This document shows, in pieces, positions 1 through 11,152 of a stretch of DNA of 64,000 nucleotides. How positions within the stretch are numbered: the stretch's first letter is position 1; each line of letters begins with the position of its first letter. Location of the stretch: IMG/VR virus record IMGVR_UViG_3300009174_000004, positions 31,778 to 95,777 of that record. One strand, 5' to 3'. The notes under the pieces were generated by a model. That model was given only the letters and a program-made list of their open reading frames with translations, ran no database searches and was not told where the DNA came from. Source of the DNA: a virus. Its lineage: Duplodnaviria > Heunggongvirae > Uroviricota > Caudoviricetes. Position numbers and translations under genes: made by a program.

Positions 1-204
1 CCATTGAGCTACTGGGAGAGGGGGATGTTTCGTTCGTTCCGAGGGCGCCACACGTGCGCGATTCTCCAATGAGTCAGAGCACCTTCGAAGGCGCCCTGCT
101 GGGTCACATACCCCGCACCTGAGGTGCGGAGGGTTCTGGTGCAGGGACGGCACAACCAGTTCCAGCCCCTAGGATCCATCTTCTTTACTCGTAGCGGATT
201 CACG

Positions 205-293
205 CGGAAGGGAGGAGGGTCGAACTCCTACGGGTTGTTAGCCCCAACTGTTTTCAAGACAGTGGCCGGCGCCATCTGTCGGCTGGCCCTTCC
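205..293 (-). tRNA. tRNA-Ser (anticodon TGA), class II with long variable arm
   Basis: Manual fold of the reverse complement. Acceptor GGAAGGG/CCCTTCC. Anticodon arm ACTGT-CTTGAAA-ACAGT. T arm AGGAG-TTCGACC-CTCCT. Long variable stem-loop. Confidence 0.6.
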
Positions 294-300
294 ATTGTGC

Positions 301-531
301 TTAGTCCTTGAGGGACTGGATGAACTGTCGCCACTGGTCCCTGGTGAGGCGAAGTACGACACCATCAGGGTCCTTGGAGTCGCGCATCAGGACCTCGTCC
401 TCGGTGTGACCAACCTCGACGCATTCGCCGCCGCCGCGGTGACCAGCCCTTGCCCAGGCCACCTCGACGCAAGTCCCAGTGTCGCAGCGACTAGACCTTA
501 CCCACGTCGCCATAATGGAATCCCCATCCAC
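301..531 (-). CDS. DUF397-like small protein with a tandem C-V-E-V motif; the start may be the internal Met at 513
   Basis: ORF-track translation contains RCDTGTCVEVAW and GGGECVEVGH followed by VLMRDSKDPDGVVLRLTRDQWRQF, the hallmark of Streptomyces DUF397. Confidence 0.55.
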   Translation of the reverse strand: MDGDSIMATWVRSSRCDTGTCVEVAWARAGHRGGGECVEVGHTEDEVLMRDSKDPDGVVLRLTRDQWRQFIQSLKD

Positions 532-652
532 TCGGACATACCCAAATAGGTCTGTCGCCTGCGCGTTCTCTAGCGCCTTCCTCGGTTCGGTAGCCCATGC
601 ACTTGCATGTGCGACACCAGAACCGAGCTTTATCCTTCTTGGACTTAGTCAT
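491..652 (-). CDS. hypothetical small Cys-rich protein (53 aa)
   Basis: Hand-translated below the ORF-track cutoff: MTKSKKDKARFWCRTCKCMGYRTEEGARERAGDRPIWVCPSGWGFHYGDVGKV. It overlaps the 5' end of the DUF397 ORF. Confidence 0.25.
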   Translation of the reverse strand: MTKSKKDKARFWCRTCKCMGYRTEEGARERAGDRPIWVCPSGWGFHYGDVGKV

Positions 653-762
653 CACGTCCTTGATGTCTCCAGCACCGGCTGTCGTTGGTCTGGACCTTAA
701 GGCACCAGGGCCTCAGGCATAGACGGTAGTACGGGAACTGCCTGTTGAACCAACGTTTCACG

Positions 763-836
763 TACCCGCAAGAGGATTCGAACCTCCGGCCTCCGCATCC
801 GTAGTGCGGCGCTCTAATCCGCTGAGCTATGCGGGC
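763..836 (-). tRNA. tRNA-Arg (anticodon ACG)
   Basis: Acceptor GCCCGCA/TGCGGGT. D arm GCTC..GAGC. Anticodon arm CCGCA-CTACGGA-TGCGG. T loop GGTTCGAATCC. Confidence 0.65.
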
Positions 837-927
837 TGGGAACTGCCGCCAGGTAATTAATAATTCACTAGCAGGACCAGGTCGAAGTGGCTTGATAGGA
901 GTTGTTAATTGTCCTGACGGCAGTTCG

Positions 928-1002
928 TGGGGATGGAAGGATTTGAACCTTCGGCCACCGACGTATCAGGTCGGCACTCTAACCAGGCTGAGTTACATCC
1001 CC
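928..1002 (-). tRNA. tRNA-Ile (anticodon GAT)
   Basis: Acceptor GGGGATG/CATCCCC. Anticodon arm CCGAC-CTGATAC-GTCGG. T arm GAAGG-TTCAAAT-CCTTC. Confidence 0.65.
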
Positions 1003-1069
1003 TAGGTGTCCGGCCTATCGGCCTACCCATACCGGACTGGTGGGACTACAGGTAATTGCCTATCCCAAG

Positions 1070-1155
1070 CGGAAGTGCTCGGATTCGAACCGAGGGACCT
1101 TTTTAGGGGCCACAGTCTTAGCAGGACTGCGCGATAGACCGCTCTGCCACACTTC
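1070..1155 (-). tRNA. tRNA-Ser (anticodon GCT), class II
   Basis: Acceptor GGAAGTG/CACTTCC. Anticodon arm CAGTC-CTGCTAA-GACTG. Long variable arm. T arm CTCGG-TTCGAAT-CCGAG. Confidence 0.65.
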
Positions 1156-1159
1156 CTTG

Positions 1160-1232
1160 TCGGGGTGGGGAGTCTCGAACTCCCGACCTCTTGACCCCCA
1201 GTCAAGCGCGCTGACCCCTGCGCCACACCCCG
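1160..1232 (-). tRNA. tRNA-Pro (anticodon GGG)
   Basis: Acceptor CGGGGTG/CACCCCG. Anticodon arm CTTGA-CTGGGGG-TCAAG. T arm GGGAG-TTCGAGA-CTCCC. Confidence 0.65.
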
Positions 1233-1398
1233 AGACTTACTTGGATCCTCCGCGCTCTCGCTCCCAGACGATCTCCATGGTGCGGGCCTTCCTGGAGCCC
1301 TGCCCCTCGAACTTCCAGCTAGTCGTCATCCCTCGTATCACCCAGCCCCAGTTGATTCTCGGGGCGGTCACGTTGGAACCAGACATTGGAAACCTTTC

Positions 1399-1575
1399 CT
1401 ACTCAGGGAACCGGAGGTTCCTCCAGTTCCCGCCGACGAACTCACGCCACTCCTCGGCAGTGAACTCGACTACTGGGCCATCAGGGTCTTGCGAGTTGCG
1501 CACCAGGACCACATCTTCCTTGTCCATGACCTCTACACAGCCGTTACTGTCGCATCTCCTGGACTTGATCCACAT
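1399..1575 (-). CDS. DUF397-like small protein (58 aa)
   Basis: Hand-translated below the ORF cutoff: MWIKSRRCDSNGCVEVMDKEDVVLVRNSQDPDGPVVEFTAEEWREFVGG... Confidence 0.5.
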   Translation of the reverse strand: MWIKSRRCDSNGCVEVMDKEDVVLVRNSQDPDGPVVEFTAEEWREFVGGNWRNLRFPE

Positions 1576-1853
1576 GGCTCCTCGCTCTCAATGAAGGGAC
1601 CTGGGTCCCAGGGCTGGTAGTCGTAGAACGACGACCTTGGGGTGACGAAGACCTCCTGGACCTCGGCCTTGTGCTTCAGTAGGCACTTGTCGCAGAGGAT
1701 GATGCGCAGGTGCCGGAGGTTGGACATCGGGTCGTAGACCGTGCTGCCGTACTGCCCACCGCTGGTGAAGACGGTGGCCCCGTAGGGCTGCTCGGGCCAA
1801 TGCTCCTTGTCGACAGACTCGGGCACGTACCCACACTTGAAACAAGGGATCAT
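1533..1853 (-). CDS. hypothetical zinc-finger protein (CxxC...CxxC), about 106 aa
   Basis: ORF 1533..1916 trimmed to the internal Met just downstream of tRNA-Asp: MIPCFKCGYVPESVDKEHWPEQPYG...ILCDKCLLKHKAEV. Its 3' end overlaps the DUF397 gene. Confidence 0.4.
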   Translation of the reverse strand: MIPCFKCGYVPESVDKEHWPEQPYGATVFTSGGQYGSTVYDPMSNLRHLRIILCDKCLLKHKAEVQEVFVTPRSSFYDYQPWDPGPFIESEEPCGSSPGDATVTAV

Positions 1854-1857
1854 CACG

Positions 1858-1930
1858 CGCTGCCGACGGGAGTCGAACCCGCACCAACCGGCCTGACAAG
1901 CCGGGACCCTAACCATTGGGCTACGACAGC
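1858..1930 (-). tRNA. tRNA-Asp (anticodon GTC)
   Basis: Acceptor GCTGTCG/CGGCAGC. Anticodon arm CCGGC-TTGTCAG-GCCGG. T arm CGGG-TTCGACT-CCCG. Confidence 0.65.
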
Positions 1931-1934
1931 TTGG

Positions 1935-2009
1935 TACCGACGTAGGGACTCGAACCCTAAAACACCTGATCCTAAGTCAGGCCGCTTGAGCCAATCAGCG
2001 TGCGTCGGC
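1935..2009 (-). tRNA. tRNA with anticodon TAG (Leu by anticodon) but a class-I fold with a 5-nt variable loop; the 3' CCA appears to be encoded
   Basis: Acceptor GCCGACG/CGTCGGT followed by A then CCA. Perfect anticodon arm CCTGA-CTTAGGA-TCAGG. T arm TAGGG-TTCGAGT-CCCTA. Confidence 0.5.
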
Positions 2010-2010
2010 G

Positions 2011-2079
2011 TGGAGCAAATCGGTATCGAACCGATCGGGGTCTCCTTGCAAGGGAGACCTGTGCACCAGCACCTGCCCC
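2011..2079 (-). tRNA. tRNA-Ala (anticodon TGC) with a reduced D arm (69 nt)
   Basis: Acceptor GGGGCAG/TTGCTCC including a G3:U70 wobble, the Ala identity element. Anticodon arm TCTCC-CTTGCAA-GGAGA. Perfect T arm ATCGG-TTCGATA-CCGAT. Confidence 0.45.
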
Positions 2080-2087
2080 ATATACAA

Positions 2088-2145
2088 CCCTAGGGGGCAC
2101 TACCTGCGCGCTGGCTCAGGTCCGCGAAACCCGAGGCCCCCTAGG
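2088..2145. repeat. Inverted repeat CCCTAGGGGGC / GCCCCCTAGG with a ~36-nt spacer; not a tRNA
   Basis: Arms of 10-11 bp read directly between two tRNA genes. No T-loop or D-loop motifs. Confidence 0.4.
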
Positions 2146-2149
2146 ATCG

Positions 2150-2223
2150 AGCCCACCCCCGGATTCGAACCGGAAACCTTCCGCTTACAAGGCGGCTGCA
2201 CAAACCGTCTGTGCTACGTGGGC
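2150..2223 (-). tRNA. tRNA-Thr (anticodon TGT)
   Basis: Acceptor GCCCACG/GGTGGGC with a 7:66 mismatch. D arm GCAC..GTGC. Anticodon loop CTTGTAA. T loop GGTTCGAATCC. Confidence 0.5.
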
Positions 2224-2278
2224 GAGACACTGACCTCGGTGCCAGTTCACCATAGGAGGCCAGCGTTCTCTTCCTGGG

Positions 2279-2467
2279 TTACTGCTGCGGTTGTGAACCA
2301 CCACCCTGGAAGTCATGCTCACCCTCGTGAGGGTGAGGAAGAATGCACCAGTGCTCTAGGTTCTCGTCAAGCTCTAAGCACTGGTCTGGAAGACCCATGA
2401 GGCGAGCGACTACGCGGCCCTGCCCGTCCATGGACATTGCGATGCCAAAGTATCCGGTCACGTTCAC
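2279..2467 (-). CDS. hypothetical small protein; putative GTG start overlaps the upstream stop as GTGA
   Basis: The C-terminal part of ORF 2279..2635 (…YFGIAMSMDGQGRVVARLMGLPDQCLELDENLEHWCILPHPHEGEH…) looks protein-like. The upstream part overlaps the neighbouring gene in another frame. Confidence 0.25.
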   Translation of the reverse strand: MNVTGYFGIAMSMDGQGRVVARLMGLPDQCLELDENLEHWCILPHPHEGEHDFQGGGSQPQQ

Positions 2468-2724
2468 CTCCAAGCGCTCCCTGAGATAGGACCCACGTCC
2501 ACATCTTCGTGGTCCTGAAGCTTGATCAGTTCTTGCCGAATGCTGCGCCAGATCACTCGCGCCTGCTTGAAGCCGCGCCTTCGGTTGGCCCTTTCGCCAT
2601 AGTGATCGCATCGACAAGTCTTGTAAAGGGGCCACATTTCATCCTGGTACCGGTACCAGCGGTGCCGTTCGTAAGAGTCAGCCTCCTGGACATGCCAGGG
2701 GCGATGGACGTCGGTGCGGGACAT
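2464..2724 (-). CDS. hypothetical small Cys/His-containing protein (86 aa)
   Basis: ORF-track translation has a non-repetitive composition and motifs CRCDHYG and WHVQEAD. Confidence 0.4.
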   Translation of the reverse strand: MSRTDVHRPWHVQEADSYERHRWYRYQDEMWPLYKTCRCDHYGERANRRRGFKQARVIWRSIRQELIKLQDHEDVDVGPISGSAWR

Positions 2725-2785
2725 GTAACGACCTGTCCTTCGGCCGCCTAGCCGCCATGGCTAGGACTAACGCCTCTCCATGACG

Positions 2786-3163
2786 TCACGTCCTTCCGGG
2801 CTTGGGCCAACAGGCCTTCACGATCTCGCTGTCCGAGCCCACTCGAAACTTGGCTAACACCTTGCGCTTCTTGTTGGTCAGGTAGTAGCACTTACAGTCC
2901 TGCTCTGCGGCTAGTGGCAGGTACTCAAGCGGATCACTGCGCCAATGCAGCTTGTCCCAGATCCACTCGGCAATCCTGAACCCCGGCACCTTGTAGATCC
3001 ACATGTCGTACCAGTGGTAGATCGTTGCCATGAGCCAGGGCCAGAACGGCTGCTCCCATAGCTCGACCATGTACCACACGTAGAGGTCGGTGCGCGTGCC
3101 GTCCTTCTTGATGAAGCCGTTAGGTGCACGTTCTCCGTGCTGCATCAGTGTGTATCCGCGCAA
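2786..3163 (-). CDS. hypothetical Trp-rich protein (125 aa)
   Basis: Translation MRGYTLMQHGERAPNGFIKKDGTRTDLYVWYMVELWEQPFWPW... has a globular-like composition. Confidence 0.45.
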   Translation of the reverse strand: MRGYTLMQHGERAPNGFIKKDGTRTDLYVWYMVELWEQPFWPWLMATIYHWYDMWIYKVPGFRIAEWIWDKLHWRSDPLEYLPLAAEQDCKCYYLTNKKRKVLAKFRVGSDSEIVKACWPKPGRT

Positions 3164-3357
3164 CCCTTTAGCTCCCTGCTGCTACCTGACTGAAGCTGGA
3201 CCGGCTCCTCGGGAATCTCGGGGCCAGGCGCAGGCTCAGACACCTTCGTCACCTTGGTGATTCCAGGGATCAGGCGCAAGGCACGGGACCAGTTCCCGGC
3301 ATACACGGTGCGTCGTCCCTTGGGCTTTCCCTTGCTGTACCTCGATCTCATCATCAC
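3145..3357 (-). CDS. hypothetical small basic protein (70 aa)
   Basis: ORF with a basic N-terminus (MMMRSRYSKGKPKGRR), overlapping the upstream gene by 19 nt. Confidence 0.3.
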   Translation of the reverse strand: MMMRSRYSKGKPKGRRTVYAGNWSRALRLIPGITKVTKVSEPAPGPEIPEEPVQLQSGSSRELKGCADTH

Positions 3358-3513
3358 CTGCCTAAGTATGGGGGGCGCAGATCTGGACTAAGGCCATAGG
3401 AGACCCGAAGAGAGCAGGGTTGTTTTAGCCCGTCATGATCCAGTCTTCAAGGCATCTAAAATGAAGATACCCTTATGCGATTCTCTCTTTCTTTACCTTG
3501 TTGACGCCCCATG

Positions 3514-3587
3514 TGCCCGCAACAGGAGTCGAACCTGCAAGCACCAGCACCTCATGCTGACGGCTTTGCCAATTTGCCTACACGGGC
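3514..3587 (-). tRNA. tRNA with anticodon GAG (Leu by anticodon) but a class-I fold (74 nt)
   Basis: Acceptor GCCCGTG/TGCGGGC. Anticodon arm TCAGC-ATGAGGT-GCTGG. T arm GCAGG-TTCGACT-CCTGT. Discriminator A. Confidence 0.45.
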
Positions 3588-3872
3588 CTAGTTGTAGTCC
3601 TGGCCGATCCTCAGTTCGCCCGCCTCTGGGTCGGCGCCGATGGCCTGGCAGATCTTCTCCCAGATCGGCCTGAGGCAGTCCGTGCACAGGTCCAGGCGAA
3701 CCCGGTCGTTGACGCACTCGTCCTCGTTGAGGGTGATCCTCAACTGGTTCGGGAACTTGTCCTCGTCGCCTGATTCGTGGTCAAGGTCCCGGCCGCACTT
3801 GTCGCACGTGATGGTTTCGATTGCCATGCGGCGCTCTACCATCTTCTTCTCGTACTTGATTTCCTTGGACAC
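3588..3872 (-). CDS. zinc-ribbon protein (two CxxC pairs), 94 aa
   Basis: Translation contains TCDKCGRD ... CTDCLRP. The gene is packed exactly between two tRNAs (stop at 3588-3590; the next tRNA ends at 3587). Confidence 0.5.
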   Translation of the reverse strand: MSKEIKYEKKMVERRMAIETITCDKCGRDLDHESGDEDKFPNQLRITLNEDECVNDRVRLDLCTDCLRPIWEKICQAIGADPEAGELRIGQDYN

Positions 3873-3873
3873 G

Positions 3874-3948
3874 CACCCCGAGGAGGATTCGAACCTTAGC
3901 CATTCCCTGGTCCAGAGCCAGGTGTCCTGCCAGTTAGACGATCGGGGT
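3874..3948 (-). tRNA. tRNA-Gln (anticodon CTG)
   Basis: Acceptor ACCCCGA/TCGGGGT with discriminator G. D arm GTCT..GGAC. Perfect anticodon arm CCTGG-CTCTGGA-CCAGG. T loop TTCGAAT, though the T stem is weak. Confidence 0.5.
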
Positions 3949-3953
3949 AGGAC

Positions 3954-3989
3954 GGGGGCACCCTGTCACGGGGGTAAGAGGGTGCCCCC
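3954..3989. other. Stable GC-rich hairpin (11-bp stem GGGGGCACCCT/AGGGTGCCCCC, 14-nt loop) with no U-tract
   Basis: Read directly from sequence. Lies between tRNA-Gln and the HNH gene. Confidence 0.4.
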
Positions 3990-4202
3990 GGGGGCCAGCC
4001 GGTTGGAGGTTGCCCTGGGGAGGGTACCAACCGCCGGTTCCACCACCTCAAAGCCAGAGGGCCTTGAGGCTCTTCTCCATTCGGATCATCGCCAGAACTG
4101 CCGTCTCTGCAGCGTAGGGGTTGATCCGAAGGAGGTCTGGTGCCATCTGTTCCAGCATCAGGTAGACCCTCACTGCCTCGACGGCAGGGTCCAGCTTCAT
4201 TC

Positions 4203-4646
4203 TCACCGTCTCAGGTTGGCCCATGTAGGCGCCTCCGGCTTGACTTGAAGGACCATACCGGCCTCTTGCGGGGTCCGGTCGCCCTTGCGCTGGTTGCAGG
4301 GATCACACGAGGCCACCGTGTTGGTCCAGGTGTTCTTCCCACCCCTGGAGGTGGGAATGACGTGGTCCACGGTGATGCCTGTGTGGCCGTTGCAGTAGCT
4401 GCAGGTGAAGTTGTCCCGACGTAGCACGCCACTACGTGACCAGGACGGTCCCGCCGTGTAGCGCCACTTGGTGACGATGTACCTCACCAGCTTGACGACC
4501 TTGGGCATACCCCAAGGTCCGTACCGTATGTCAGGCTCCGATTCGTGGACCTCTGCCACACCACGGCAAAGCATCCGGATCGCGTGCCTGAGGCTGACCC
4601 GGTGCAGTGGTCCTAGGTCAGCGTTGAGAACTAGGACTGCTTGCAC
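4203..4646 (-). CDS. HNH endonuclease
   Basis: Translation contains CSYCNGHTGITVDHVIPTSRGGKNTWTNTVASCDPCNQRKGDRTP, the HNH signature (C-x2-C ... DH ... N ... C-x2-C). Confidence 0.8.
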   Translation of the reverse strand: MQAVLVLNADLGPLHRVSLRHAIRMLCRGVAEVHESEPDIRYGPWGMPKVVKLVRYIVTKWRYTAGPSWSRSGVLRRDNFTCSYCNGHTGITVDHVIPTSRGGKNTWTNTVASCDPCNQRKGDRTPQEAGMVLQVKPEAPTWANLRR

Positions 4647-4711
4647 TGGGTGCTCCTTTCCGTCCTAGAAGCCCATGTCCTTCCCTTTCGCTGGGCTGTG
4701 TATAAGAAACG

Positions 4712-4782
4712 TGCGGCCGAGCAGACTCGAACTGCCTCCTGCGCCTTGGCAAAACGCCGTGCAACCCCTACACCACGACCAC
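4712..4782 (-). tRNA. tRNA-Gly (anticodon GCC), 71 nt
   Basis: Acceptor GTGGTCG/CGGCCGC with two G-U pairs. Anticodon arm GCGTT-TTGCCAA-GGCGC. T arm GGCAG-TTCGAGT-CTGCT. Confidence 0.55.
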
Positions 4783-4885
4783 AACTTGTTAGTAGTCAAT
4801 CCAGGCAACTATCACTGCGGTGATGCTAAGCAGCAATGCCCCCAGGGTCAGTAGTACTACAGCGATCCTTGATCTGTCATTCACG

Positions 4886-4960
4886 AGCCGGCGCCGAGCC
4901 TCGAACTCGGTTCTCTCCGCTTACGAGACGGGGGTTTTAACCAGATTAAACTACCCCGGC
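4886..4960 (-). tRNA. tRNA-Thr (anticodon CGT)
   Basis: Acceptor GCCGGGG/CGCCGGC. D arm GTTT..AAAC. Anticodon loop CTCGTAA. T arm CCGAG-TTCGAGG-CTCGG. Confidence 0.5.
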
Positions 4961-5037
4961 TTAAGGTTCCCTGGCATCAGTCTTCGCTGTGGAGCGAATC
5001 ACACACATCGGATCTCACTTCCGAACCAGGGAACCCG

Positions 5038-5110
5038 AGCCCAAGGTCAGAATCGAACTGACCCCTCGGACTTACCACGTCCGCGCTCTCACCAGTCGAG
5101 CTACATGGGC
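5038..5110 (-). tRNA. tRNA-Thr (anticodon GGT)
   Basis: Acceptor GCCCATG/CTTGGGC. D arm GCTC..GAGC. Perfect anticodon arm CGGAC-GTGGTAA-GTCCG. T arm GTCAG-TTCGATT-CTGAC. Confidence 0.6.
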
Positions 5111-5118
5111 AGGCGGCG

Positions 5119-5523
5119 CTAAACTTCAGCGCCGTTGCGAAGATCCTTCGCCGTTTCCTCGAAGAGATCAATGACTTCTTCGACAGTGCGGCTGGGCACA
5201 TCGTTCCAGAGGGGAAGGTTGAAGGGGTAGGTCAACCCTTCCTCCTGCGCACGCTTAACCAGCTTCTTGTCCAGCGCATTCTTGGCGGCGTAGAAGAGGT
5301 CGTTCGCCTTCTTGATCTGCCACACCAGGGCACCAGCGCTGCAAACCTCAGCTATCGCCGGATCGAGTACCCCACCAGGGCACATTATCGAGATCTTATC
5401 GCCGGAGCCGTCGCGTGCCATCGTCTTCTGTGTCCAGCCGATGGTCCCATCTCGCCAGGCCCGGGCGCTATTCTCCAGAACCTCGGCGACCTTGTTGTTC
5501 CAGTCGATGTTCCAGTTCTTCAT
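5119..5523 (-). CDS. hypothetical protein (134 aa)
   Basis: ORF with balanced composition (MKNWNIDWNNKVAEVLENSARAWRDGTIGW...). The stop abuts the tRNA-Thr 5' end. Confidence 0.45.
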   Translation of the reverse strand: MKNWNIDWNNKVAEVLENSARAWRDGTIGWTQKTMARDGSGDKISIMCPGGVLDPAIAEVCSAGALVWQIKKANDLFYAAKNALDKKLVKRAQEEGLTYPFNLPLWNDVPSRTVEEVIDLFEETAKDLRNGAEV

Positions 5524-5741
5524 TTGCTCTTCTCCAGGGTTCTCTGCGTCTCATCTTTTCCGCGTTCGTTCCGCAATGCTGGCGTGTTGCCAGCACAGTG
5601 CCTCGCGATCGACTACCCGGGTTGCCTTGCGTTGACAACTCCACGTTGACGAAGCCCACGAGCTACCGAACGCTTGCGCTGTCGTCACTGCCTGACACCA
5701 TCCAAGGTCAGGCGTTGCTTCCTTGTCCATCTGGTCCTCCG

Positions 5742-5815
5742 CTCCGGGTGCGAGACTCGAACTCGCAGGTTCCAGATCCAAAGTCTGGCCACGGACGCCG
5801 ATGCCGTACCCCGGA
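5742..5815 (-). tRNA. tRNA-Gln (anticodon TTG)
   Basis: Acceptor TCCGGGG/ACCCGGA (U1-A72) with discriminator G. Perfect anticodon arm CCAGA-CTTTGGA-TCTGG. T arm GCGAG-TTCGAGT-CTCGC. Confidence 0.6.
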
Positions 5816-5970
5816 TTAACTGTCCTCGTCGACTCCCTCCTCAAAGACAAGTTCCTCTGGGTAGCAGCCGAATTGGGCCTTGAACGACTCACGCTGGAAG
5901 GCGAGCGCCTCAGCGACCTGTTCCGGGTCCCCGGACAGGAGAGCCTGAAGTACTACCTCAGGACCCTTGT

Positions 5971-6138
5971 CTAGTCTGGCCACACCCAGCCTCGCTTCTC
6001 AGCATCATTCGCTGCGCGCTCGTACCAGTGGCCGCGTTCCTCTGGTGGAAGATCGAAGAACTCTGAGCCAGTTTCTTCTCTGGCTTTCTCGTACCAGTAG
6101 CTGCGTTCTTCTGCCGGTAGATCATGGAAATCAACCAT
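5971..6138 (-). CDS. hypothetical 55-aa protein with an internal tandem duplication
   Basis: Hand-translated: MVDFHDLPAEERSYWYEKAREETGSEFFDLPPEERGHWYERAANDAEKRGWVWPD. The duplicated unit is LPxEERxxWYE. The start abuts the 3' end of tRNA-Gly. Confidence 0.4.
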   Translation of the reverse strand: MVDFHDLPAEERSYWYEKAREETGSEFFDLPPEERGHWYERAANDAEKRGWVWPD

Positions 6139-6139
6139 G

Positions 6140-6213
6140 TGCGGATGCCGGGGCTCGAACCCGATTCCTTCTGTTTGGAAGACAGACGTGCAAACCTGTT
6201 ACACCTCATCCAC
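6140..6213 (-). tRNA. tRNA-Gly (anticodon TCC)
   Basis: Acceptor GTGGATG/CATCCGC. Perfect anticodon arm TCTGT-CTTCCAA-ACAGA. T arm TCGGG-TTCGAGC-CCCGG. Confidence 0.6.
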
Positions 6214-6324
6214 GTTGCCCCAGTCACCCCACCTTGACTGGAACGCTTGCGTCCCGTGATGCTCCATTCACTAGACGCACTCCCGAGCACCTAGGCTCAT
6301 TCGTCTTTCTGGCCTTCCTAGGCG

Positions 6325-6399
6325 AGGACCGTACGGGGCTCGAACCCGCAATACTCCGACTTGAGAGGCCGGTGAGTTTACCAATTCCTCCAACGGTCC
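6325..6399 (-). tRNA. tRNA-Glu (anticodon CTC)
   Basis: Perfect acceptor GGACCGT/ACGGTCC. Anticodon arm CCGGC-CTCTCAA-GTCGG. T arm GCGGG-TTCGAGC-CCCGT. Confidence 0.6.
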
Positions 6400-6487
6400 A
6401 GACGTAAGGCAAGGAGTCAACCTGTCCAGGATTTCCTTCTGGTTGTTACCATCTTCATCCCGTTCACTCTCGGTTCCTTGCCCTACG

Positions 6488-6559
6488 TATCTCCTGACGG
6501 AATCGAACCGCCGCAGTCCGGGCTTCAACCGGATGCTCTACCACCTAAGCTAAGGAGAC
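6488..6559 (-). tRNA. tRNA-Phe (anticodon GAA)
   Basis: Acceptor GTCTCCT/AGGAGAT. D arm GCTT..GAGC. Anticodon arm TCCGG-TTGAAGC-CCGGA. T arm GGCGG-TTCGATT-CCGTC. Confidence 0.6.
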
Positions 6560-6595
6560 ATGGGGCACAAGATTCGTGCCCTTTGTGCTGTTGAA

Positions 6596-7021
6596 TCAGT
6601 TCGTTGGGTGCTGGAACCAGATCGAACTGCCGGAGTTCCCGGGAGGGAAGCAGCTTCCGAACCAGGCCCCTGCCCAACCTGACTGGGTGCAGTTCTTGAA
6701 CTGTCCCTGATAGACCGTGGCGATGGCCGTGCCGGAGCAGCCCGCGTTCTCGTAGATCGTTGCTGACCAGCCCCACGTGAGCTTCATCGACCCGATCTGA
6801 TCGTTGATCGCAGGACCGAAGGGAATGCATTGGCTCGAAGCTGGCGACGTCCAGTAGTAGGCGGGATTGCTGCCACCGGGCCAGGCGGCGTACCAGACGC
6901 AGATGTGGGTTGGTCCACACGCTTCTCCATGTGCTGATGCTGGGGCCTCGGCAGCCACTGCTATTCCCAGACCCAGGATCACAGCACCGATAGCCGCTGC
7001 GATCCTTCGACGAGCGCTCAT
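6596..7021 (-). CDS. secreted Cys-containing protein (signal peptide plus ~110-aa mature domain)
   Basis: From the internal Met: MSARRRIAAAIGAVILGLGIAVAAEAPASA, then a Cys/Trp/Gly-rich domain (GEACGPTHICVWY...CSGTAIATVYQGQFKNC). Confidence 0.5.
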   Translation of the reverse strand: MSARRRIAAAIGAVILGLGIAVAAEAPASAHGEACGPTHICVWYAAWPGGSNPAYYWTSPASSQCIPFGPAINDQIGSMKLTWGWSATIYENAGCSGTAIATVYQGQFKNCTQSGWAGAWFGSCFPPGNSGSSIWFQHPTN

Positions 7022-7059
7022 GCAAGCTCCTCTTCTTGGACTCAACAAAGCCTTGAAGG

Positions 7060-7125
7060 AAACCACGGCGGGATTCGAACCACGCATCTAGTGCGTCCAC
7101 CACTCTTCCGTTGAGCTACGTGATT
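7060..7125 (-). tRNA. degenerate tRNA-like element (66 nt) with acceptor, D and T-loop motifs but poor T and anticodon stems (possible TAG/CTA loop)
   Basis: Acceptor AATCACG/CGTGGTT. D arm GCTC-AACGGAA-GAGT. TTCGAAT present but with only 2-3 bp of T stem. Anticodon arm ACGC-ACTAGAT-GCGT. Confidence 0.25.
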
Positions 7126-7130
7126 TCCAG

Positions 7131-7202
7131 GGATCGCGATGGGACTCGAACCCACAACCCAGCGTTTTAGAAACGCCTGCTCTGCCGTTAAGCTACGCGA
7201 TC
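7131..7202 (-). tRNA. suppressor-type tRNA with anticodon CTA (reads UAG amber)
   Basis: Acceptor GATCGCG/CGCGATC. D arm GCTT-AACGGCA-GAGC. Anticodon arm GGCGT-TTCTAAA-ACGCT with canonical U33 and A37. T arm GTGGG-TTCGAGT-CCCAT. Confidence 0.55.
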
Positions 7203-7450
7203 GTCGATCCGTACCAGCTTGTGCAATCGAACTCGCAGTCCTCGATGATCAGGCAATTATCCCAGTCGAGATCTGCAACATGCTCCGAACCAAGCTCCTC
7301 AGCAACAATGCGCTCAGCAAACTCCCGAGGAGTTTCGTTGAACGGGGAGCCAAGCTCGAACCCTTCACGTTCGCCATCCACGTATATGGCGTGGCCGCAA
7401 CAACCGGTGTCGCAGCCGTACCGCTCGTGGTACACGACGACCTTCGTCAT
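7193..7450 (-). CDS. hypothetical Cys-rich protein (85 aa)
   Basis: Translation MTKVVVYHERYGCDTGCCGHAIYVDGEREGF... The 3' end overlaps the 5' end of the CTA tRNA by ~10 nt. Confidence 0.4.
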   Translation of the reverse strand: MTKVVVYHERYGCDTGCCGHAIYVDGEREGFELGSPFNETPREFAERIVAEELGSEHVADLDWDNCLIIEDCEFDCTSWYGSTIA

Positions 7451-7527
7451 GTTCCCTCCCCTCTTAGCTAAGGGATGGAGCCGGCGGGGGAGGGGTTACC
7501 TGTCCCCTAGGCTTCCCCACGCCGACG

Positions 7528-7600
7528 TGGACCTACCCGGACTCGAACCGGGAACCTCCTGTCTGCCAGACAGGTGCTCAACCAATTGAGCTATAAGCCC
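7528..7600 (-). tRNA. tRNA-Ala (anticodon GGC)
   Basis: Acceptor GGGCTTA/TAGGTCC with G3:U70. Perfect anticodon arm CCTGT-CTGGCAG-ACAGG. T arm CCCGG-TTCGAGT-CCGGG. Confidence 0.6.
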
Positions 7601-7762
7601 GCGTTCCCCGAAAGTATTGATACCAACGGCTTCAAGCCTGTGATCTCCACCGTGGCCAGGAGAACACCCAGTCGCGACTAGATGACTCCACTACCTTCGA
7701 GGTCGCCGCGAGGTCAGGGGATTGGGCTGATCATTCCCAACCCGAAGGCGCCTGCCTCAGTG

Positions 7763-7834
7763 TGGATCGAACCGGATTTGAACCGGCATCTCCCGCCCCA
7801 AATGCGGGGCTCTGCTCTCTTGAGCTACCAACCC
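7763..7834 (-). tRNA. tRNA with anticodon TTG (Gln by anticodon) but a G3:U70-bearing acceptor stem
   Basis: Acceptor GGGTTGG/TCGATCC (three G-U pairs including 3:70) with discriminator A. Perfect anticodon arm CCCGC-ATTTGGG-GCGGG. T arm GCCGG-TTCAAAT-CCGGT. Confidence 0.45.
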
Positions 7835-7946
7835 AGGCGACATACAGGACCCGGATACCGCCCTCGCTGACTATGGACCCCACCTCGCGATTCCATCCAC
7901 GGGAAGGAGGTTCGGACTCAGCAGTGCGTATGTCAGACACATGCCC

Positions 7947-8022
7947 GTCGGGACGGTCGGATTTGAACCGACGACCCCCTGGTCCCAAACCAGGTGCGCT
8001 AGACCAGACTGCGCTACGTCCC
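7947..8022 (-). tRNA. tRNA-Pro (anticodon TGG)
   Basis: Perfect acceptor CGGGACG/CGTCCCG. D arm GCGC..GCGC. Anticodon arm CCTGG-TTTGGGA-CCAGG. T arm GTCGG-TTCAAAT-CCGAC. Confidence 0.65.
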
Positions 8023-8194
8023 GTAAGTCCTAGCCTTGGTTCTGTGCTGCTCCATCTCGTCCATCTCCGGAACCCTGCTTACGCATTGTCGCCAGTGTCG
8101 GTATCTGGTATCGCATCTCGTCCCAAGGCTAGGACGTATACATGCTGTCCACTGTGGAGTTCTCAAATCACAGGTCCTCAGTTCCCCGAGGAAG

Positions 8195-8266
8195 CGCCGA
8201 TGCAAGGATTCGAACCCTGTCCGACCGGGTTGGAGCCGGTCATGCTTACCGTTACACCACATCGAC
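8195..8266 (-). tRNA. tRNA-Trp (anticodon CCA)
   Basis: Acceptor GTCGATG/CATCGGC. Perfect anticodon arm ACCGG-CTCCAAC-CCGGT. T arm CAGGG-TTCGAAT-CCTTG. Confidence 0.6.
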
Positions 8267-8585
8267 AATGTTCAGTTAGAAAGAACCGCCCCCAGGGGCG
8301 TGGTTCCTGAGGGCGGCTTAGGGATCTTGGATCCCCCTTACCTGACCCTAGGCCGACCAGCGAACCGATTCCAGGTCGCCATGGACGTGGCGCATCGCGG
8401 CAGGTGCTGCCGCTTTGTCCCACTGGTCCACAACATCCCTGTTCCCCTAGATCTATCGCCTTGCTCCTGAGCTTAGGGCCGGGGCCCCGGGTTGACAACC
8501 TTGAACATTGGGGCCTGGCTGCGAGCTTCTGTGTGACACCTAGAACTGTACCCGTACATCAGGGTGGTGTCAATCCCCATTTTGC

Positions 8586-8627
8586 GGGGGAGAGGATCCT
8601 GGTCTCACCAACAAGATCCTCTCCCCC
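8586..8627. other. Perfect 13-bp hairpin GGGGGAGAGGATC...GATCCTCTCCCCC (16-nt loop) inside a ~400-bp non-coding gap
   Basis: Read directly. A T-run lies immediately 5' on the plus strand. No canonical U-tract follows on either strand. Confidence 0.45.
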
Positions 8628-8663
8628 GTCCCCTCGTCGCCCCCTACGGTGACAAGGTCGAAG

Positions 8664-9005
8664 CTACACCCCCATGTGCGGGTGGTCAAGGCCTTGGCTG
8701 CCTCCCTTTTCCTTCTCCGGGTGCCCTGGCTTGATCACGTAGGTATCGACCAGCGTGTAGTAGATCGCGTGGACGACGTTGCGGGCCATCATCTGCTCAC
8801 CCAGCAGGCTCCACTTGTAGGTGCCATCCGAGTCGGTGGTCAGGCTCAGCCGCTCCTCGGCGTTACCCAGCGCTGTTAGCAGGGTGTAGGCCAGGCCAGC
8901 CTTGGGATCCCCGTTGCGGCCAGGCAGGAACCGGTGCAGCGCCCGGCCTACCTCAGCGATCATCTCCTCGTACTGACCCGGCAGCAGGGCCTTGGGGTCG
9001 CGCAT
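8664..9005 (-). CDS. hypothetical protein (113 aa), translationally coupled to the upstream beta-helix gene
   Basis: Internal Met start gives ATGCGCGACCCC, overlapping the upstream TAG by one nt. Translation MRDPKALLPGQYEEMIAEVGRALHRF... Confidence 0.4.
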   Translation of the reverse strand: MRDPKALLPGQYEEMIAEVGRALHRFLPGRNGDPKAGLAYTLLTALGNAEERLSLTTDSDGTYKWSLLGEQMMARNVVHAIYYTLVDTYVIKPGHPEKEKGGSQGLDHPHMGV

Positions 9006-9006
9006 G

Positions 9007-10206
9007 CTACGCCGGAGCAAGGATCGCTCCGTCGCTGTCCCGGACGTTGCCGAACCAGGCAGAGGTATGCGGGGATCCGCACGAGTTGGCATAGCCAAAC
9101 TCGAATGGGCCGAACCTGTTGTTAGTCACTCGTGTATCCGAGGTGCCCTGCCTGGGGCAGTACAGGGTGTAGGTACCCCATGCCAGTAGGTTCTCGGTGA
9201 TCTGCACGCGCTGCTGCTGCGGGTTGCCCTCGTTCCAACTGATGATGGCCGAGGTGGCGCCGTTGCCCGGACCCACGTTGATCGTGTTGTGCCGGAAGGT
9301 GATGTCCGTGGCTCCCTGGTTGAACTGGGCTCCGTCGGTGTGGGCGCCGTTGGCCGTGACCATGTTGTGGATCCAGGAGTCCTGGACCAGGACGCTGCCG
9401 GAGATGCTGAGCCCGTTCTCACAGTCGTGGATGTCCACGTGGGTCAAGCTGATGCTGGACTCGACGAACGCGGTGCCGTTGAACCCGCCGCAGGTGGCCT
9501 CGCTGTCGAAGACCTGCAGGTTGGTGCTGAAGTTGCGCACCGCGTAGAAGCAGCCGTTGCCGTTGAACAGCACGTTCCGGAACGTGATGTTGGCGCCTCG
9601 CACCTCGACGCAGCCGTTGATTCTGGTGTTGGCCACCGTCTGTCCTGGCGTGGAGAAGGTCTGGTTTCCGTTCAAGATCACCAGCGGTGGTGACGTAGGA
9701 CCAGTGCTTGCTGCGTCAGGGAAGCCGCAGGCGCCTGGGTTGTTGATGCAGCCGTTCTGGGTGGACGTTGGCCTTGGTGTCGTAGGAGTAGAAGTAGGGG
9801 TAGAAGTCGGCGTTGGGGGTCGCGTGGTGGTGGGCGACGGGGATGGGGTCACCGTGGGGCTGGTGCTGCTGCTGGCTGTGGCGCTCGGACTGGCCGTGGC
9901 ACTTGGGGTGCTGGTGGCGCTCGCGCTGGCAGTTGGGCTGATGCTCGGGCTGCCGGTGGGGCTTGGGGATGGTGCAGCTACCAGTCCAGTGAGCGTGCAC
10001 TGGAAGACGTACGTTCCGTTGGCGCCTGGGGTGAGGTCCCCGCAGGAGACGCCTGGTTGCGGTGCTACGACCACCTGCTGGGCGCTCGGCGCAGCCGCAA
10101 ACGCTCCCGACACACCGAGCACGGCGTAGACCAGCGCCACCGTGACGGCCGTGATGAGGAGCGACTCTTGACTTAACCGGGACCACAGGTTCCTGTTCTC
10201 AGTCAT
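9007..10206 (-). CDS. signal-anchored Pro/Thr/Ser-linker protein with a right-handed parallel beta-helix (pectate-lyase-like) domain
   Basis: The N-terminal hydrophobic segment LLITAVTVALVYAVLGVSGAFAAAP is followed by a long PT/S-rich linker. The C-terminal part has repeating N-x-x-x-N/G beta-helix rungs (RNVLFNGNGCFYAVRNF, HNTINVGPGNGATSAII, NNRFGPFEFGYANS). Confidence 0.55.
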   Translation of the reverse strand: MTENRNLWSRLSQESLLITAVTVALVYAVLGVSGAFAAAPSAQQVVVAPQPGVSCGDLTPGANGTYVFQCTLTGLVAAPSPSPTGSPSISPTASASATSTPSATASPSATASSSTSPTVTPSPSPTTTRPPTPTSTPTSTPTTPRPTSTQNGCINNPGACGFPDAASTGPTSPPLVILNGNQTFSTPGQTVANTRINGCVEVRGANITFRNVLFNGNGCFYAVRNFSTNLQVFDSEATCGGFNGTAFVESSISLTHVDIHDCENGLSISGSVLVQDSWIHNMVTANGAHTDGAQFNQGATDITFRHNTINVGPGNGATSAIISWNEGNPQQQRVQITENLLAWGTYTLYCPRQGTSDTRVTNNRFGPFEFGYANSCGSPHTSAWFGNVRDSDGAILAPA

Positions 10207-10265: not shown

Positions 10266-10649
10266 GTGATCGACTGGTACGGACGGGTGGCCGTCCTCAA
10301 CAAGCCGACCGAGGATGGGCGGGTGCTGACCGAGCAGTTGCAGGTGCGCCAGGGTGCCCCGGTCGTGGCTACGCTCCTGTTTGAGTCAGGACCGCGCCTT
10401 GTAGGCCACGTTCGAAGCATCTCCCCGCACCAGCCTGAGGCAGGCCGTCCTAGCTCAGTGAGGGCCCGACTACGGCTGAACGTGCAGTTGCTGGCTGCCC
10501 TGGAGAATCGGGGCCAGAACCTCTATCCGGAGATTGATCTAGACCTGGACCTCAAGACGATCGTGGCAGTTACCCTCGGCATCCGACCCTGCTGGCCCGA
10601 GGTGGACGCAGTCCTGCTCATAACAGAGGAGGAGCAGCATGACCGTTGA
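10266..10649 (+). CDS. hypothetical protein (GTG start), first gene of the rightward block
   Basis: ORF track. Divergent from the beta-helix gene with a 59-bp gap. Its stop overlaps the next start. Confidence 0.4.
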   Translation: MIDWYGRVAVLNKPTEDGRVLTEQLQVRQGAPVVATLLFESGPRLVGHVRSISPHQPEAGRPSSVRARLRLNVQLLAALENRGQNLYPEIDLDLDLKTIVAVTLGIRPCWPEVDAVLLITEEEQHDR

Positions 10650-11152
10650 CCCAGAACCCGTTGACCCAGAACAGAGGAACGTCAGGCTGGTCCTTGGTCA
10701 CCGGAAGCAGGACCTGGAATCGGCCAGCAGCCATCTGGGACCGGCTCGACAGCCTGCTCGCCGAGCACGGACCGCAGGGCCGCTGTCTGATCATCATCAA
10801 CGGCATGGCCAAGAAGGGTGTCGATCTGTTCGCCCACGTCTGGACAGGGGAGCAGCACCAGATCAACCCGATGGCCGTCAAGGAGTGGCCCTTCCCTGTC
10901 TCGACCGCTGACTGGGCCAGGCTCGGACGCCGGGCCGGGCACATGCGCAACGACGAGATGGCCCGACTCGGTGCCGATTACTGCCTGGCCTGGATTCAGC
11001 AGTGCCTCAAAGAGGACTGCCGACGCCCCGGGGTTCATGGGACCCACGGGGCGTCTGACTGTGTTGCACGAGCCCGGACCTACGGCGTGCCCAACATCGA
11101 GTTAGTCGAGTCGTGGACGGAGATAGCAGTCCCAGACCCGAACCTCCTTTAG
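10646..11152 (+). CDS. DUF2493 / SLOG-family (YspA-like) protein
   Basis: Motifs WSLVTGSRTW ... CLIIINGMAKKGVDLFAHVW ... TADWARLGRRAGHMRNDEMARLGADYCLAWI ... THGASDCVARARTYGVP match the GxAxGxD...ADW...AGxxRNxxM...DxxLAF pattern of the phage DUF2493 family. Confidence 0.65.
   Translation: MTQNPLTQNRGTSGWSLVTGSRTWNRPAAIWDRLDSLLAEHGPQGRCLIIINGMAKKGVDLFAHVWTGEQHQINPMAVKEWPFPVSTADWARLGRRAGHMRNDEMARLGADYCLAWIQQCLKEDCRRPGVHGTHGASDCVARARTYGVPNIELVESWTEIAVPDPNLL

Follow-up and report, generated by a model that had tools for sequence, protein, structure and literature searches.

A dense tRNA array in a large uncultured actinobacteriophage and the possible release of leaderless small mRNAs by tRNA excision

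Introduction

Clusters of transfer RNA (tRNA) genes occur in phages of very different hosts. In phage T4, eight tRNAs are transcribed together and processed out of a precursor; small open reading frames (ORFs) and tRNA-like stable RNAs are interspersed, and the homing endonuclease SegB, whose gene is part of the cluster, promotes inheritance of the cluster. The Mycobacterium phage Bxz1 (Bixzunavirus) has a dense array of 23 co-oriented tRNAs in 5.3 kilobases (kb), and the Rhodococcus phage Trina has many small ORFs interleaved with its tRNA genes. Both traits recur at the locus studied here, an array of tRNA genes and small ORFs on the minus strand of a 64,000-nucleotide (nt) stretch of viral DNA (positions 31,778 to 95,777 of IMG/VR record IMGVR_UViG_3300009174_000004). 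We call this whole stretch the window and use its coordinates throughout, unless a contig is named. A further parallel comes from organelles, in the tRNA punctuation of mitochondrial transcripts, reportedly described by Ojala, Montoya and Attardi in 1981.

As a tRNA array, the locus is ordinary. It belongs to one more large actinophage with its own tRNA set, and arrays with HNH endonucleases, small ORFs, tRNA genes ending in a lone C74 and tRNAs with a CUA anticodon are already known in cultured actinophages. What goes beyond routine is the evidence, gathered across a whole family of related arrays, that a subset of the ORFs has tRNA-punctuated and probably leaderless messages; an alanine-type tRNA with the anticodon UUG adds to this. 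The account that we favor, and that we hold to be reasonably probable, is that of a co-transcribed tRNA operon that supplies a near-complete decoding set, whose processing also matures leaderless small messenger RNAs (mRNAs) and whose ORFs behave as cassettes.

A same-strand array of tRNA genes

ARAGORN finds 22 tRNA genes in the window, all of them on the minus strand between 762 and 8266. In a default run of the Rfam tRNA model, 20 of the 24 tRNA and tRNA-like genes reach the gathering score, namely 19 of the ARAGORN genes and a tRNA-like element at 7060-7125 (37.6 bits); tRNA-Thr(CGT), at 4885-4960, passes in a sensitive run with 43.3 bits. Two genes are called by ARAGORN only and are conserved in relatives: tRNA-Ala(TGC) at 2010-2079, 70 nt long with a minimal D arm and with compensatory changes in the related contigs L025 and L027, and tRNA-Gln(TTG) at 5741-5815, with U1:A72 and G73. 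The class II tRNA-Ser(TGA) at 204-293, which has an atypical D arm, is missed by ARAGORN and recognized by homology. It scores 35.4 bits against the Rfam tRNA-Sec model, is 77% identical to an annotated tRNA-Ser of Trina and aligns with the ARAGORN-called tRNA-Ser(TGA) of the relatives L017 and L027. All 24 genes that the original prediction had listed from the letters of the DNA prove to be real, on the minus strand and where it had put them, with an exact match of the anticodon in the 22 cases called by ARAGORN. That program, which had been named as part of the check, recovers most of the genes and none on the opposite strand, and the member that had been described as a degenerate tRNA-like element is the one that scores 37.6 bits. 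Twenty-four tRNAs in the same orientation within 8.1 kb are far above chance, and we are close to certain that the region is a phage array of functional-looking tRNAs.

The array is cut by the edge of the window. Bases 1-18 are the 5' part of a minus-strand tRNA-Arg(TCT), and 14 further tRNAs (Lys, Met, Val, Glu, Asn, Ile, His, Tyr, Arg, Cys and others) follow beyond it on the contig. In full, about 39 tRNAs occupy 13.6 kb (36 ARAGORN genes, tRNA-Ser(TGA), the tRNA-like element and one extra Rfam tRNA), a set that covers all 20 amino acids and includes a CUA tRNA. The region in the window is most likely the promoter-proximal two thirds of a leftward tRNA operon of about 13.6 kb. On contig L033, beyond the left edge of the window, Rfam reports an 86-nt tRNA at 14560-14645 (48 bits, no ARAGORN call), with discriminator C and an encoded CCA.

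Lone C74 at the tRNA 3' ends

In a family set of 189 non-redundant tRNA-plus-flank sequences, the counts of which are not phylogenetically independent, C occupies position 74 in 185 (98%) and G position 75 in 122, and six (3%) encode CCA; within the window the only tRNA to encode it is tRNA-Leu(TAG) at 1932-2009. The cultured actinophages Trina and Bxz1 have the same pattern, their tRNA genes ending in a lone C74, often followed by G, and not in CCA, so that the lone C74 is a general actinophage trait and not a peculiarity of this array. It also fits published end-mapping in Propionibacterium acnes, a bacterium with no obvious tRNase Z homologue in which tRNA 3' processing sites lie between C74 and C75 (PMC3848588); mycobacterial RNase E, for its part, cuts immediately 5' of cytidines (PMC10641625). 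The array had been predicted to need RNase P/Z processing around its ORFs. Processing around the ORFs agrees with the anatomy of the locus, whereas the involvement of RNase Z is not secure, since P. acnes cuts after C74 without an obvious homologue of that enzyme.

Start and stop codons flush with tRNAs

Some of the small ORFs leave no space at all between themselves and the neighboring tRNAs, as had been noticed for two of them. The ORF at 3588-3872 (94 amino acids (aa), zinc-ribbon-like), which opens with GTG and has the highest coding score of the array, leaves no base free between tRNA-Gln(CTG) at 3873-3948 and tRNA-Leu(GAG) at 3513-3587, and the 55-aa ORF at 5971-6138, which opens with ATG, begins one base after tRNA-Gly(TCC) at 6139-6213. 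Seven tRNAs of the window, Ser(TGA), Arg(ACG), Asp(GTC), Gln(CTG), Leu(GAG), Thr(CGT) and Gly(TCC), have GTG or ATG exactly at position 75, the base after C74. Six of these starts open ORFs of 31-107 codons; besides the two just named, these are a 64-aa ORF at 9-203 behind tRNA-Ser(TGA), a 38-aa Cys-containing peptide at 645-761 behind tRNA-Arg(ACG) (762-836), a 107-aa zinc-ribbon protein (CFKCG...CDKC) at 1533-1856 behind tRNA-Asp (1857-1930) and a 31-aa hydrophobic peptide at 4789-4884 behind tRNA-Thr(CGT), with a 35-aa counterpart in the relative L007. All four of the latter begin with GTG. The ATG after tRNA-Leu(GAG) opens 18 codons only.

The excess at this position extends to the whole family. 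Start codons occur 29 times at offset 0 (position 75), about three times the mean of some 9.5 per offset at offsets 1-39, and ORFs of at least 30 codons begin there 21 times, compared with a mean of about 3.5 at the same offsets. The 29 starts comprise 19 GTG, 6 ATG and 4 TTG, and at least 30 codons are opened by 20 of the 25 ATG or GTG and by one of the four TTG. In mycobacteria, leaderless translation is efficient if, and only if, the mRNA begins directly with ATG or GTG; TTG does not serve (PMC4633059). The occurrence of ATG and GTG, and scarcely of TTG, at position 75 matches this rule, albeit in small numbers.

The zero-spaced ORFs have no Shine-Dalgarno sequence, because the sequence upstream of them is the acceptor strand of a tRNA, whereas spaced ORFs of the same array carry clear ones. 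Both arrangements can be seen in a single gene family. The zinc-ribbon family of 1533-1856, conserved in six lineages, starts with GTG at position 75 behind tRNA-Asp in the window and in L025, behind tRNA-Leu(CAA) in L027 and behind tRNA-Gln(TTG) in L019; in L014, L015 and L017 the gene has an ATG start and a spacer of 14-18 nt with GGAGG. The CFKCG motif of every one of these proteins is within 2-5 residues of the N-terminus, which leaves no alternative start for their genes. The family that we call 'KLDKGP' (55 aa, 5816-5983 in the window) alternates in the same way, its orthologues in L007, L027 and L025 starting at tRNA position 75, and so do two small peptide families that are conserved behind different tRNAs. 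The 645-761 peptide has a 68%-identical counterpart at zero spacing after tRNA-Ser(GGA) in L017, and the proteins that start at position 75 are conserved among relatives at 33-70% identity.

Stop codons can be flush as well. In six cases in the family they abut base +1 of a tRNA, with TAA, TGA and TAG at orthologous sites, and two ORFs of the window end against the next tRNA in this manner, 3588-3872 with TAG and 5816-5983 with a TAA that touches tRNA-Gln(TTG). A larger peak of stops, 19 cases, falls on tRNA positions 8-10, where U8-A9-G10 spells TAG. Of this kind is the overlap, to which attention had been drawn, between ORF 7193-7450 and a tRNA 5' end. It is real, its TAG being U8-A9-G10 of the CUA tRNA, but it is not special, as U8-A9-G10 stops any frame that enters a tRNA.

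Automatic gene calls misplace starts around the tRNAs, as at 16791-17372 and 11995-12405 of L033. One called gene of that contig runs in frame through tRNA-Met(CAT) at 16811-16883, and its likelier start is the GTG at 16884, directly after the tRNA.

A model for tRNA-punctuated messages

The 11 genes predicted in 1-10206 and all the tRNAs are without exception encoded on the minus strand, and a search of that strand from 8175 to 1 returned no terminator-like site. Together with the starts at position 75 and the stops at position -1, this agrees with the co-transcription of tRNAs and proteins that the original prediction had put forward, and that we likewise infer. A sigma-70-like promoter match (TTGACA-17-TACAGT, minus strand, 8545-8573) about 280 nt upstream of the first tRNA is a candidate start for the transcript, the number of such matches being at chance level.

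RNase P matures the 5' ends of tRNAs, and CCA-adding enzymes complete partial 3' ends. We propose that the whole block would be transcribed leftward as long precursors, in which host RNase P would cut the 5' end of each tRNA, an actinobacterial endonuclease would cut at or just after C74 and the CCA-adding enzyme would then complete the tRNA 3' ends. Because the small genes are packed against the tRNAs, the same cuts would mature the small mRNAs too, and because seven tRNAs of the window have ATG or GTG at position 75, the RNAs so released would start at the start codon or one base before it. Where a stop codon abuts a tRNA, the RNase P cut would become the 3' end of the preceding mRNA. The leaderless ATG and GTG messages, of a type that the ribosomes of actinobacteria use efficiently, would be translated without a Shine-Dalgarno sequence, and the other ORFs by way of their ordinary Shine-Dalgarno sites. 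For the punctuation and leaderless step taken by itself, we judge the chances to be even or slightly better.

Several points weigh against this account. The family counts lack phylogenetic independence, as mentioned. Since five of the 25 ATG or GTG at position 75 open only 2-20 codons, and since GTGA is over-represented (16 of the 189), part of the position-75 signal may be a processing or cleavage motif rather than a start codon. If the cut fell between N73 and C74, as the RNase E rule has it, the mRNAs would start with C-GUG, an imperfect leaderless end under the mycobacterial rule. To our knowledge, the cases of leaderless initiation that have been shown concern primary transcripts with a 5' triphosphate, and in actinobacteria it is not known to occur on cleavage products with a 5' monophosphate. 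In Bxz1 the C74-G75 pattern is present, but no ORFs begin at position 75. Co-transcription, the position of the cleavage and the translation of the zero-spaced ORFs are all steps that we infer from the arrangement of the genes. In the searchable literature we found no description of leaderless mRNAs made by tRNA processing in phages or bacteria, which is absence of evidence only.

Small ORFs as exchangeable cassettes

About 20 small ORFs (31-147 aa) lie in the array within the window, on the same strand as the tRNAs, and most of them are backed by coding statistics and by conservation in relatives. Recognizable domains are limited to two DUF397 proteins (301-531, a 76-aa ORF whose likely start is the Met at 513, E 1.9e-20; 1399-1575, 58 aa, E 1.9e-17), one DUF6197 protein (5119-5523, 134 aa, E 1.5e-10), an HNH endonuclease (4203-4646, 147 aa) that the family conserves at this place with 72-98% identity, and a secreted protein (6596-7021, 141 aa, Shine-Dalgarno-led and with a signal peptide) with a weak match to peptidase inhibitor I36 and beta-gamma-crystallin-like proteins. 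PHROGs and Pfam gave no function for most of the small ORFs. Their description as Cys-rich holds for some five or six of the roughly 20, in which CxxC pairs suggest zinc ribbons, and not for the remainder. The ORF at 5971-6138 contains two copies of a 69-nt repeat, 78% identical, that encode DLPxEER..WYE(K/R)A. With a further gene at 12423-12755 of L033, DUF6197 occurs, like DUF397, twice inside the tRNA array; both domains are otherwise typical of actinomycete genomes.

Compared with a relative of about 90% identity (L007/L038), the tRNAs are conserved and four ORFs, 3588-3872, 5971-6138, 6596-7021 and 7193-7450 (85 aa, acidic and Cys-containing, with the Shine-Dalgarno sequence GAGGGGAGGG), are present or absent as tRNA-bounded blocks; all four are lacking in L007. 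One of these blocks, 6596-7021, is 97% identical in the much more distant L014, and for this reason the inter-tRNA ORFs behave as exchangeable cassettes, for which the conserved tRNAs would act as recombination anchors. The resident HNH endonuclease may help in the exchange. A search for repeats found tRNA T-arm similarity only and no shared promoter motif, and a tblastn search of two of the small ORFs against phages found only a domain in gp127 of Mycobacterium phage Reindeer, which does not adjoin a tRNA.

Such exchange opens the way to a different reading, in which the abutment of ORFs and tRNAs is a by-product of compaction and tRNA-anchored recombination. The ORFs would be selfish or accessory, tRNA excision would destroy their messages, and they would be translated, if at all, from unprocessed polycistronic RNA by another route. 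The four tRNA-bounded blocks by which genomes of about 90% identity differ and the 97% identity of one of them in a distant phage are what this reading would lead one to expect, as are the position-75 starts that open only 2-20 codons and the HNH endonuclease, which is embedded in the array here and in Bxz1 and lies near tRNAs in Trina. However, compaction alone would not fix the start at one exact offset, and it would not remove a Shine-Dalgarno sequence that the same gene has when spaced. Nor does it account for the use of ATG and GTG, and hardly TTG, in keeping with the leaderless rule, or for proteins that are 33-70% conserved and have motifs 2-5 residues from the position-75 codon. We consider this explanation unlikely and keep to the maturation of small mRNAs by tRNA processing.

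Unusual tRNAs and the question of recoding

Two members of the array raise the question of altered decoding. The first is the amber-type CUA tRNA at 7130-7202, a sound cloverleaf (61.4 bits) with the seven-base loop UUCUAAA, U33, a purine at position 37 and the unusual discriminator C73. Its nearest relatives are the Lys tRNAs of the phage (76%). Hidden Markov models of isotype bodies rate it equally weakly as Thr, Lys and Arg and yield no amino acid either for it or for the tRNA-like element. In L014-L016, an unrelated CUA tRNA with the loop CUCUAAA is found at a different slot, and the Bxz1 array opens with a gene (95436-95509, L041) that is annotated as a 'tRNA-like product' and that ARAGORN also calls as a CUA tRNA. 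The second is the UUG tRNA at 7762-7834 (41.4 bits), with a D loop lacking GG. Its acceptor stem, GGGUUGG / UCGAUCC followed by A73, is of alanine type (G1:C72, G2:C71, G3:U70), and its anticodon is not the NGC of alanine. Its body scores best with the Ala model (17.3 bits), followed by Glu (15.1), Arg (15.0) and Gln (2.4); in control runs a true Ala tRNA scored 69 bits and a true Gln tRNA 37.2 bits.

Both tRNAs might in principle alter the meaning of codons, by amber read-through and by Gln-to-Ala mistranslation, and make the array in part a recoding device. A loop with U33 and A37-A38, as in the CUA tRNA, is favored by efficient amber suppressors, and CUA tRNAs of unrelated origin recur at different slots. 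Likewise, the combination of G3:U70, A73, G1:C72 and G2:C71 suffices for recognition by alanyl-tRNA synthetase, and the body of the UUG tRNA is unlike that of the Gln tRNAs of the family. However, TAG is an ordinary stop, ending 20 of the 58 predicted genes (TGA 20, TAA 18), and no coding read-through extension after TAG was found among these genes; two in-frame downstream ORFs have their own Shine-Dalgarno sequence. For this reason the CUA tRNA does not mark recoding, and TAG recoding was rejected. The UUG tRNA, for its part, has an anomalous D loop and a modest score. In its only other allele (L007, L008, L040), three adjacent loop positions differ to give UCU followed by U37, a pyrimidine rarely seen there, which suggests that the anticodon loop is drifting and is not selected for decoding. 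When IMG/VR and JGI metagenomes were scanned for further versions of the G3:U70 tRNA, only the known UCU allele came up. A recoding role of the array is, on balance, quite improbable, and a decoding function of the UUG tRNA is doubtful, given the three loop changes of its sole other allele; it could be an alanine donor outside normal decoding, a decoy or a decaying copy.

The tRNA-like element at 7060-7125 lies 4 nt downstream of the CUA tRNA, a position conserved in L007 (orthologue at 4919-4986). It keeps the acceptor, D and T arms and has a hairpin of 3-4 base pairs in place of the anticodon arm; it may be a processing signal only. The two Leu tRNAs of the window (1932-2009 and 3513-3587) are 75-78 nt long, with variable loops of 4-5 nt and A73, and all but one (82 nt) of the 11 Leu tRNAs tabulated from the window and its relatives measure 74-78 nt. 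A class II assignment of the two was rejected, as they have no long variable arm, A73 being present; the tRNA-Leu(TAA) of Trina, with 74 nt, is similarly short.

Positions 5115-5191 of L007 hold a 75-nt element whose anticodon arm is malformed and which has G3:U70 and A73; it also occurs in L008, L014, L016 and L040. ARAGORN reports it as Thr(CGT) at an odd position. Contigs with portal genes only 67% identical to that of the window share it with 100% identity; the window lacks it and has ORF 7193-7450 in its place. No transfer-messenger RNA (tmRNA) was found in the window by ARAGORN or Rfam, and a tmRNA reading of the odd elements was discarded, its sole match being a sub-threshold one of 30 bits to this element of L007. 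A YrlA RNA was likewise discarded, as the match scored 28.4 bits against a gathering score of 69 and straddles the junction of two tandem tRNAs. Among the cultured phages, Bxz1 and Reindeer encode small RF-1-domain proteins.

Why the array is kept

A different question is why such an array is maintained. It might be kept mainly as a counter-defence, that is, as a private tRNA set against degradation of the host pool or anticodon nucleases, with the odd members as decoys or nuclease-resistant variants. The full set serves all 20 amino acids, including the commonest codons of the phage (GAC 49, GGC 36, ATC 36 and ACC 32 per thousand), and among near-identical phages the contents of the array's variable slots change quickly. 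Published work points the same way, in that phage tRNAs are proposed to evade tRNA-targeting defences and mycobacterial tRNA array units to be putatively anti-defence (PMC10264068, PMC12803027, PMC11555353). Yet tRNAs for rare codons are present too (AGA 2.2, ATA 1.7, AAA 2.2 and CAA 4.9 per thousand), as codon compensation predicts. These frequencies are those of the phage's own genes; the array also serves codons that high-GC hosts seldom use. A complete private set would fit host independence or counter-defence at least as well as it fits pure codon compensation (PMC10264068). We regard counter-defence as the main reason for keeping the array as possible, on the doubtful side; it concerns why the array is kept and is compatible with the processing model.

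Other genes of the array

The array begins with tRNA-Trp(CCA) at 8194-8266 (54.1 bits with Rfam), followed by tRNA-Pro(TGG) at 7947-8023 (67.8 bits) and, after the UUG tRNA, by tRNA-Ala(GGC) at 7527-7600 (65.4 bits). Beyond the CUA tRNA, the tRNA-like element and the gene of the secreted protein come tRNA-Phe(GAA) at 6487-6559 and tRNA-Glu(CTC) at 6324-6399, and further along tRNA-Thr(GGT) at 5037-5110 and tRNA-Gly(GCC) at 4711-4782. A 58-aa ORF at 4048-4224, led by a Shine-Dalgarno sequence, lies between the HNH gene and tRNA-Gln(CTG). Past tRNA-Leu(GAG), the segment 2464-3357 holds three more Shine-Dalgarno-led ORFs that are conserved in L007/L038 (3145-3357, 70 aa; 2786-3163, 125 aa; 2464-2724, 86 aa) and is followed by tRNA-Thr(TGT) at 2149-2223. 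The last part contains a 49-aa Shine-Dalgarno-led ORF at 1237-1386, tRNA-Pro(GGG) at 1159-1232, the class II tRNA-Ser(GCT) at 1069-1156, tRNA-Ile(GAT) at 927-1002 (71.8 bits) and a 54-aa Cys-rich ORF at 491-655. All of these lie on the minus strand, and ARAGORN and Rfam both report each of the tRNAs named in this paragraph by its anticodon triplet.

The phage and its relatives

The source contig measures 104.8 kb and comes from a soil/rhizosphere metagenome; near-identical contigs are present in other samples, and the window differs by one base from the ENA copy of the same contig in the overlap checked. On the plus strand downstream of the array, and divergent from it, lies a head-tail gene block with genes for a portal protein (11952-13895), a MuF-like protein, the major head protein (phrog_777, E 5e-125), a tape measure and further structural proteins. 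The portal protein is related to those of Arthrobacter, Microbacterium and Actinoplanes phages at no more than about 33% identity, and its 877 matches come almost entirely from actinobacteriophages. Megablast of window 1-9000 against about 50,000 phage genomes gave no match, and blastn matches to phages were limited to single tRNAs and the HNH gene, with no other nucleotide similarity. IMG/VR holds 28 related loci on contigs of 40-158 kb. A syntenic tRNA array stands upstream of the portal gene, on the minus strand, in at least 12 related metagenomic phage contigs and in every case that includes the flank. The G+C content of the phage genes is about 58-66%. The phage is most likely large (about 105 kb or more), uncultured, siphovirus-like and a virus of soil actinobacteria. 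Its assignment to the actinophages in the original prediction is supported by the portal homologues, by the DUF397 and DUF6197 domains and by the comparable arrays of Bxz1 and Trina.

Units with about 30 or more tRNAs also exist on mycobacterial chromosomes and plasmids (PMC5966550, PMC12803027), and the region could be a cellular or plasmid unit of this type instead of a viral one. This is extremely improbable, as the array is contiguous with the portal, MuF-like, major head, tape-measure and lysis-type genes and recurs beside the portal gene in the viral contigs of IMG/VR.

Some neighboring genes deserve mention. Between the portal gene and the tRNA operon is a short divergent region, in which 10646-11152 (plus strand) encodes a YAcAr/SLOG-family protein (PF10686). 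A single ORF of 5043 aa occupies 16894-32025 (plus strand), between head-assembly genes and the major head protein gene; it has a strong A-over-T skew and a weak N-terminal match to ADP-ribosyltransferases (20.8 bits). The tape measure is a separate gene of 693 aa at 39047-41128, and the 5043-aa product is possibly a giant packaged or ejected protein. At window position 23680 the CGA of the window, L002 and L003 is replaced by TGA in the ENA assembly (L001), so that the gene calls of L001 show the giant ORF as two parts of 2262 and 2765 aa. On the minus strand, 59346-59936 encodes an Rv2179c-like 3'-5' exoribonuclease domain (Pfam E 2.6e-07; phrog_2259, E 3e-43); going by this domain, the protein could take part in RNA 3'-end trimming.

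Discussion

Our analyses suggest that the excision of tRNAs may double as the maturation of mRNAs throughout this family of phages, and probably in further actinophages, Trina among them; the array would then serve as a landing pad on which a small-gene cassette gains expression merely by flush insertion against a tRNA. To this generalization we give an even chance. If it is true, there would be in bacteria a route to leaderless mRNAs that is created by RNA processing, and the lone C74 of actinophage tRNA genes would be explained as part of a shared cleavage site. It would also explain the build-up of small ORFs in tRNA arrays and would affect genome annotation, as gene callers mis-start or miss flush ORFs. 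Compact tRNA-punctuated expression cassettes could, in addition, be of use in actinobacterial engineering. Whether phages manipulate decoding is a separate question, on which the recurrent CUA tRNAs and the alanine-type UUG tRNA have a bearing.

Among known systems, the T4 cluster resembles this array in having small ORFs, tRNA-like elements and an endonuclease gene among its tRNAs. It differs in the number of tRNAs (eight), in its proteobacterial host with poor leaderless translation and in its endonuclease, which is of the GIY-YIG and not of the HNH type. For the UUG tRNA, a parallel exists in Streptomyces, where a proline-accepting tRNA with an alanine anticodon is an identity-mismatched tRNA. 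The element at 7762-7834 similarly joins an alanine acceptor identity (G3:U70, A73) to the Gln anticodon UUG; unlike the Streptomyces tRNA, it is phage-encoded, has an atypical D loop and comes with no dedicated synthetase that we could see. The mycobacterial tRNA array units share with the present array a high number and density of tRNAs in actinobacteria-associated replicons, phages included (PMC5966550). The present array differs from them in being part of a phage head-tail genome and in having about 20 ORFs interleaved within the window.

Bxz1 and Trina are close in organization. Trina even has an annotated gene, gp207, whose ATG directly follows tRNA-Ile(TAT), as in the flush starts described here. 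The present set is larger than in both phages, with about 39 tRNAs for all 20 amino acids, and has no nucleotide similarity to theirs outside the tRNAs; the starts at position 75, systematic and conserved here, are absent from the Bxz1 array.

The proposed mode of expression would be a counterpart in bacterial viruses of mitochondrial punctuation. Here too, tRNAs adjoin the ORFs directly within a polycistronic strand, and excision would release mRNAs that lack a Shine-Dalgarno sequence, have the start codon at or beside their 5' end and in two cases finish with the stop codon. The differences are that this is a phage of bacteria, that only about one third of the ORFs are punctuated while the others keep Shine-Dalgarno sequences, and that no stop codon is completed by polyadenylation. 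The messages would also resemble the leaderless mRNAs of actinobacteria (PMC4633059; PMC3848588), with ATG or GTG at the very 5' end, no Shine-Dalgarno sequence and many small proteins as products. Known leaderless mRNAs, however, are primary transcripts in which the transcription start site is the start codon, whereas in the phage array the 5' end would come from the 3' processing of a tRNA.

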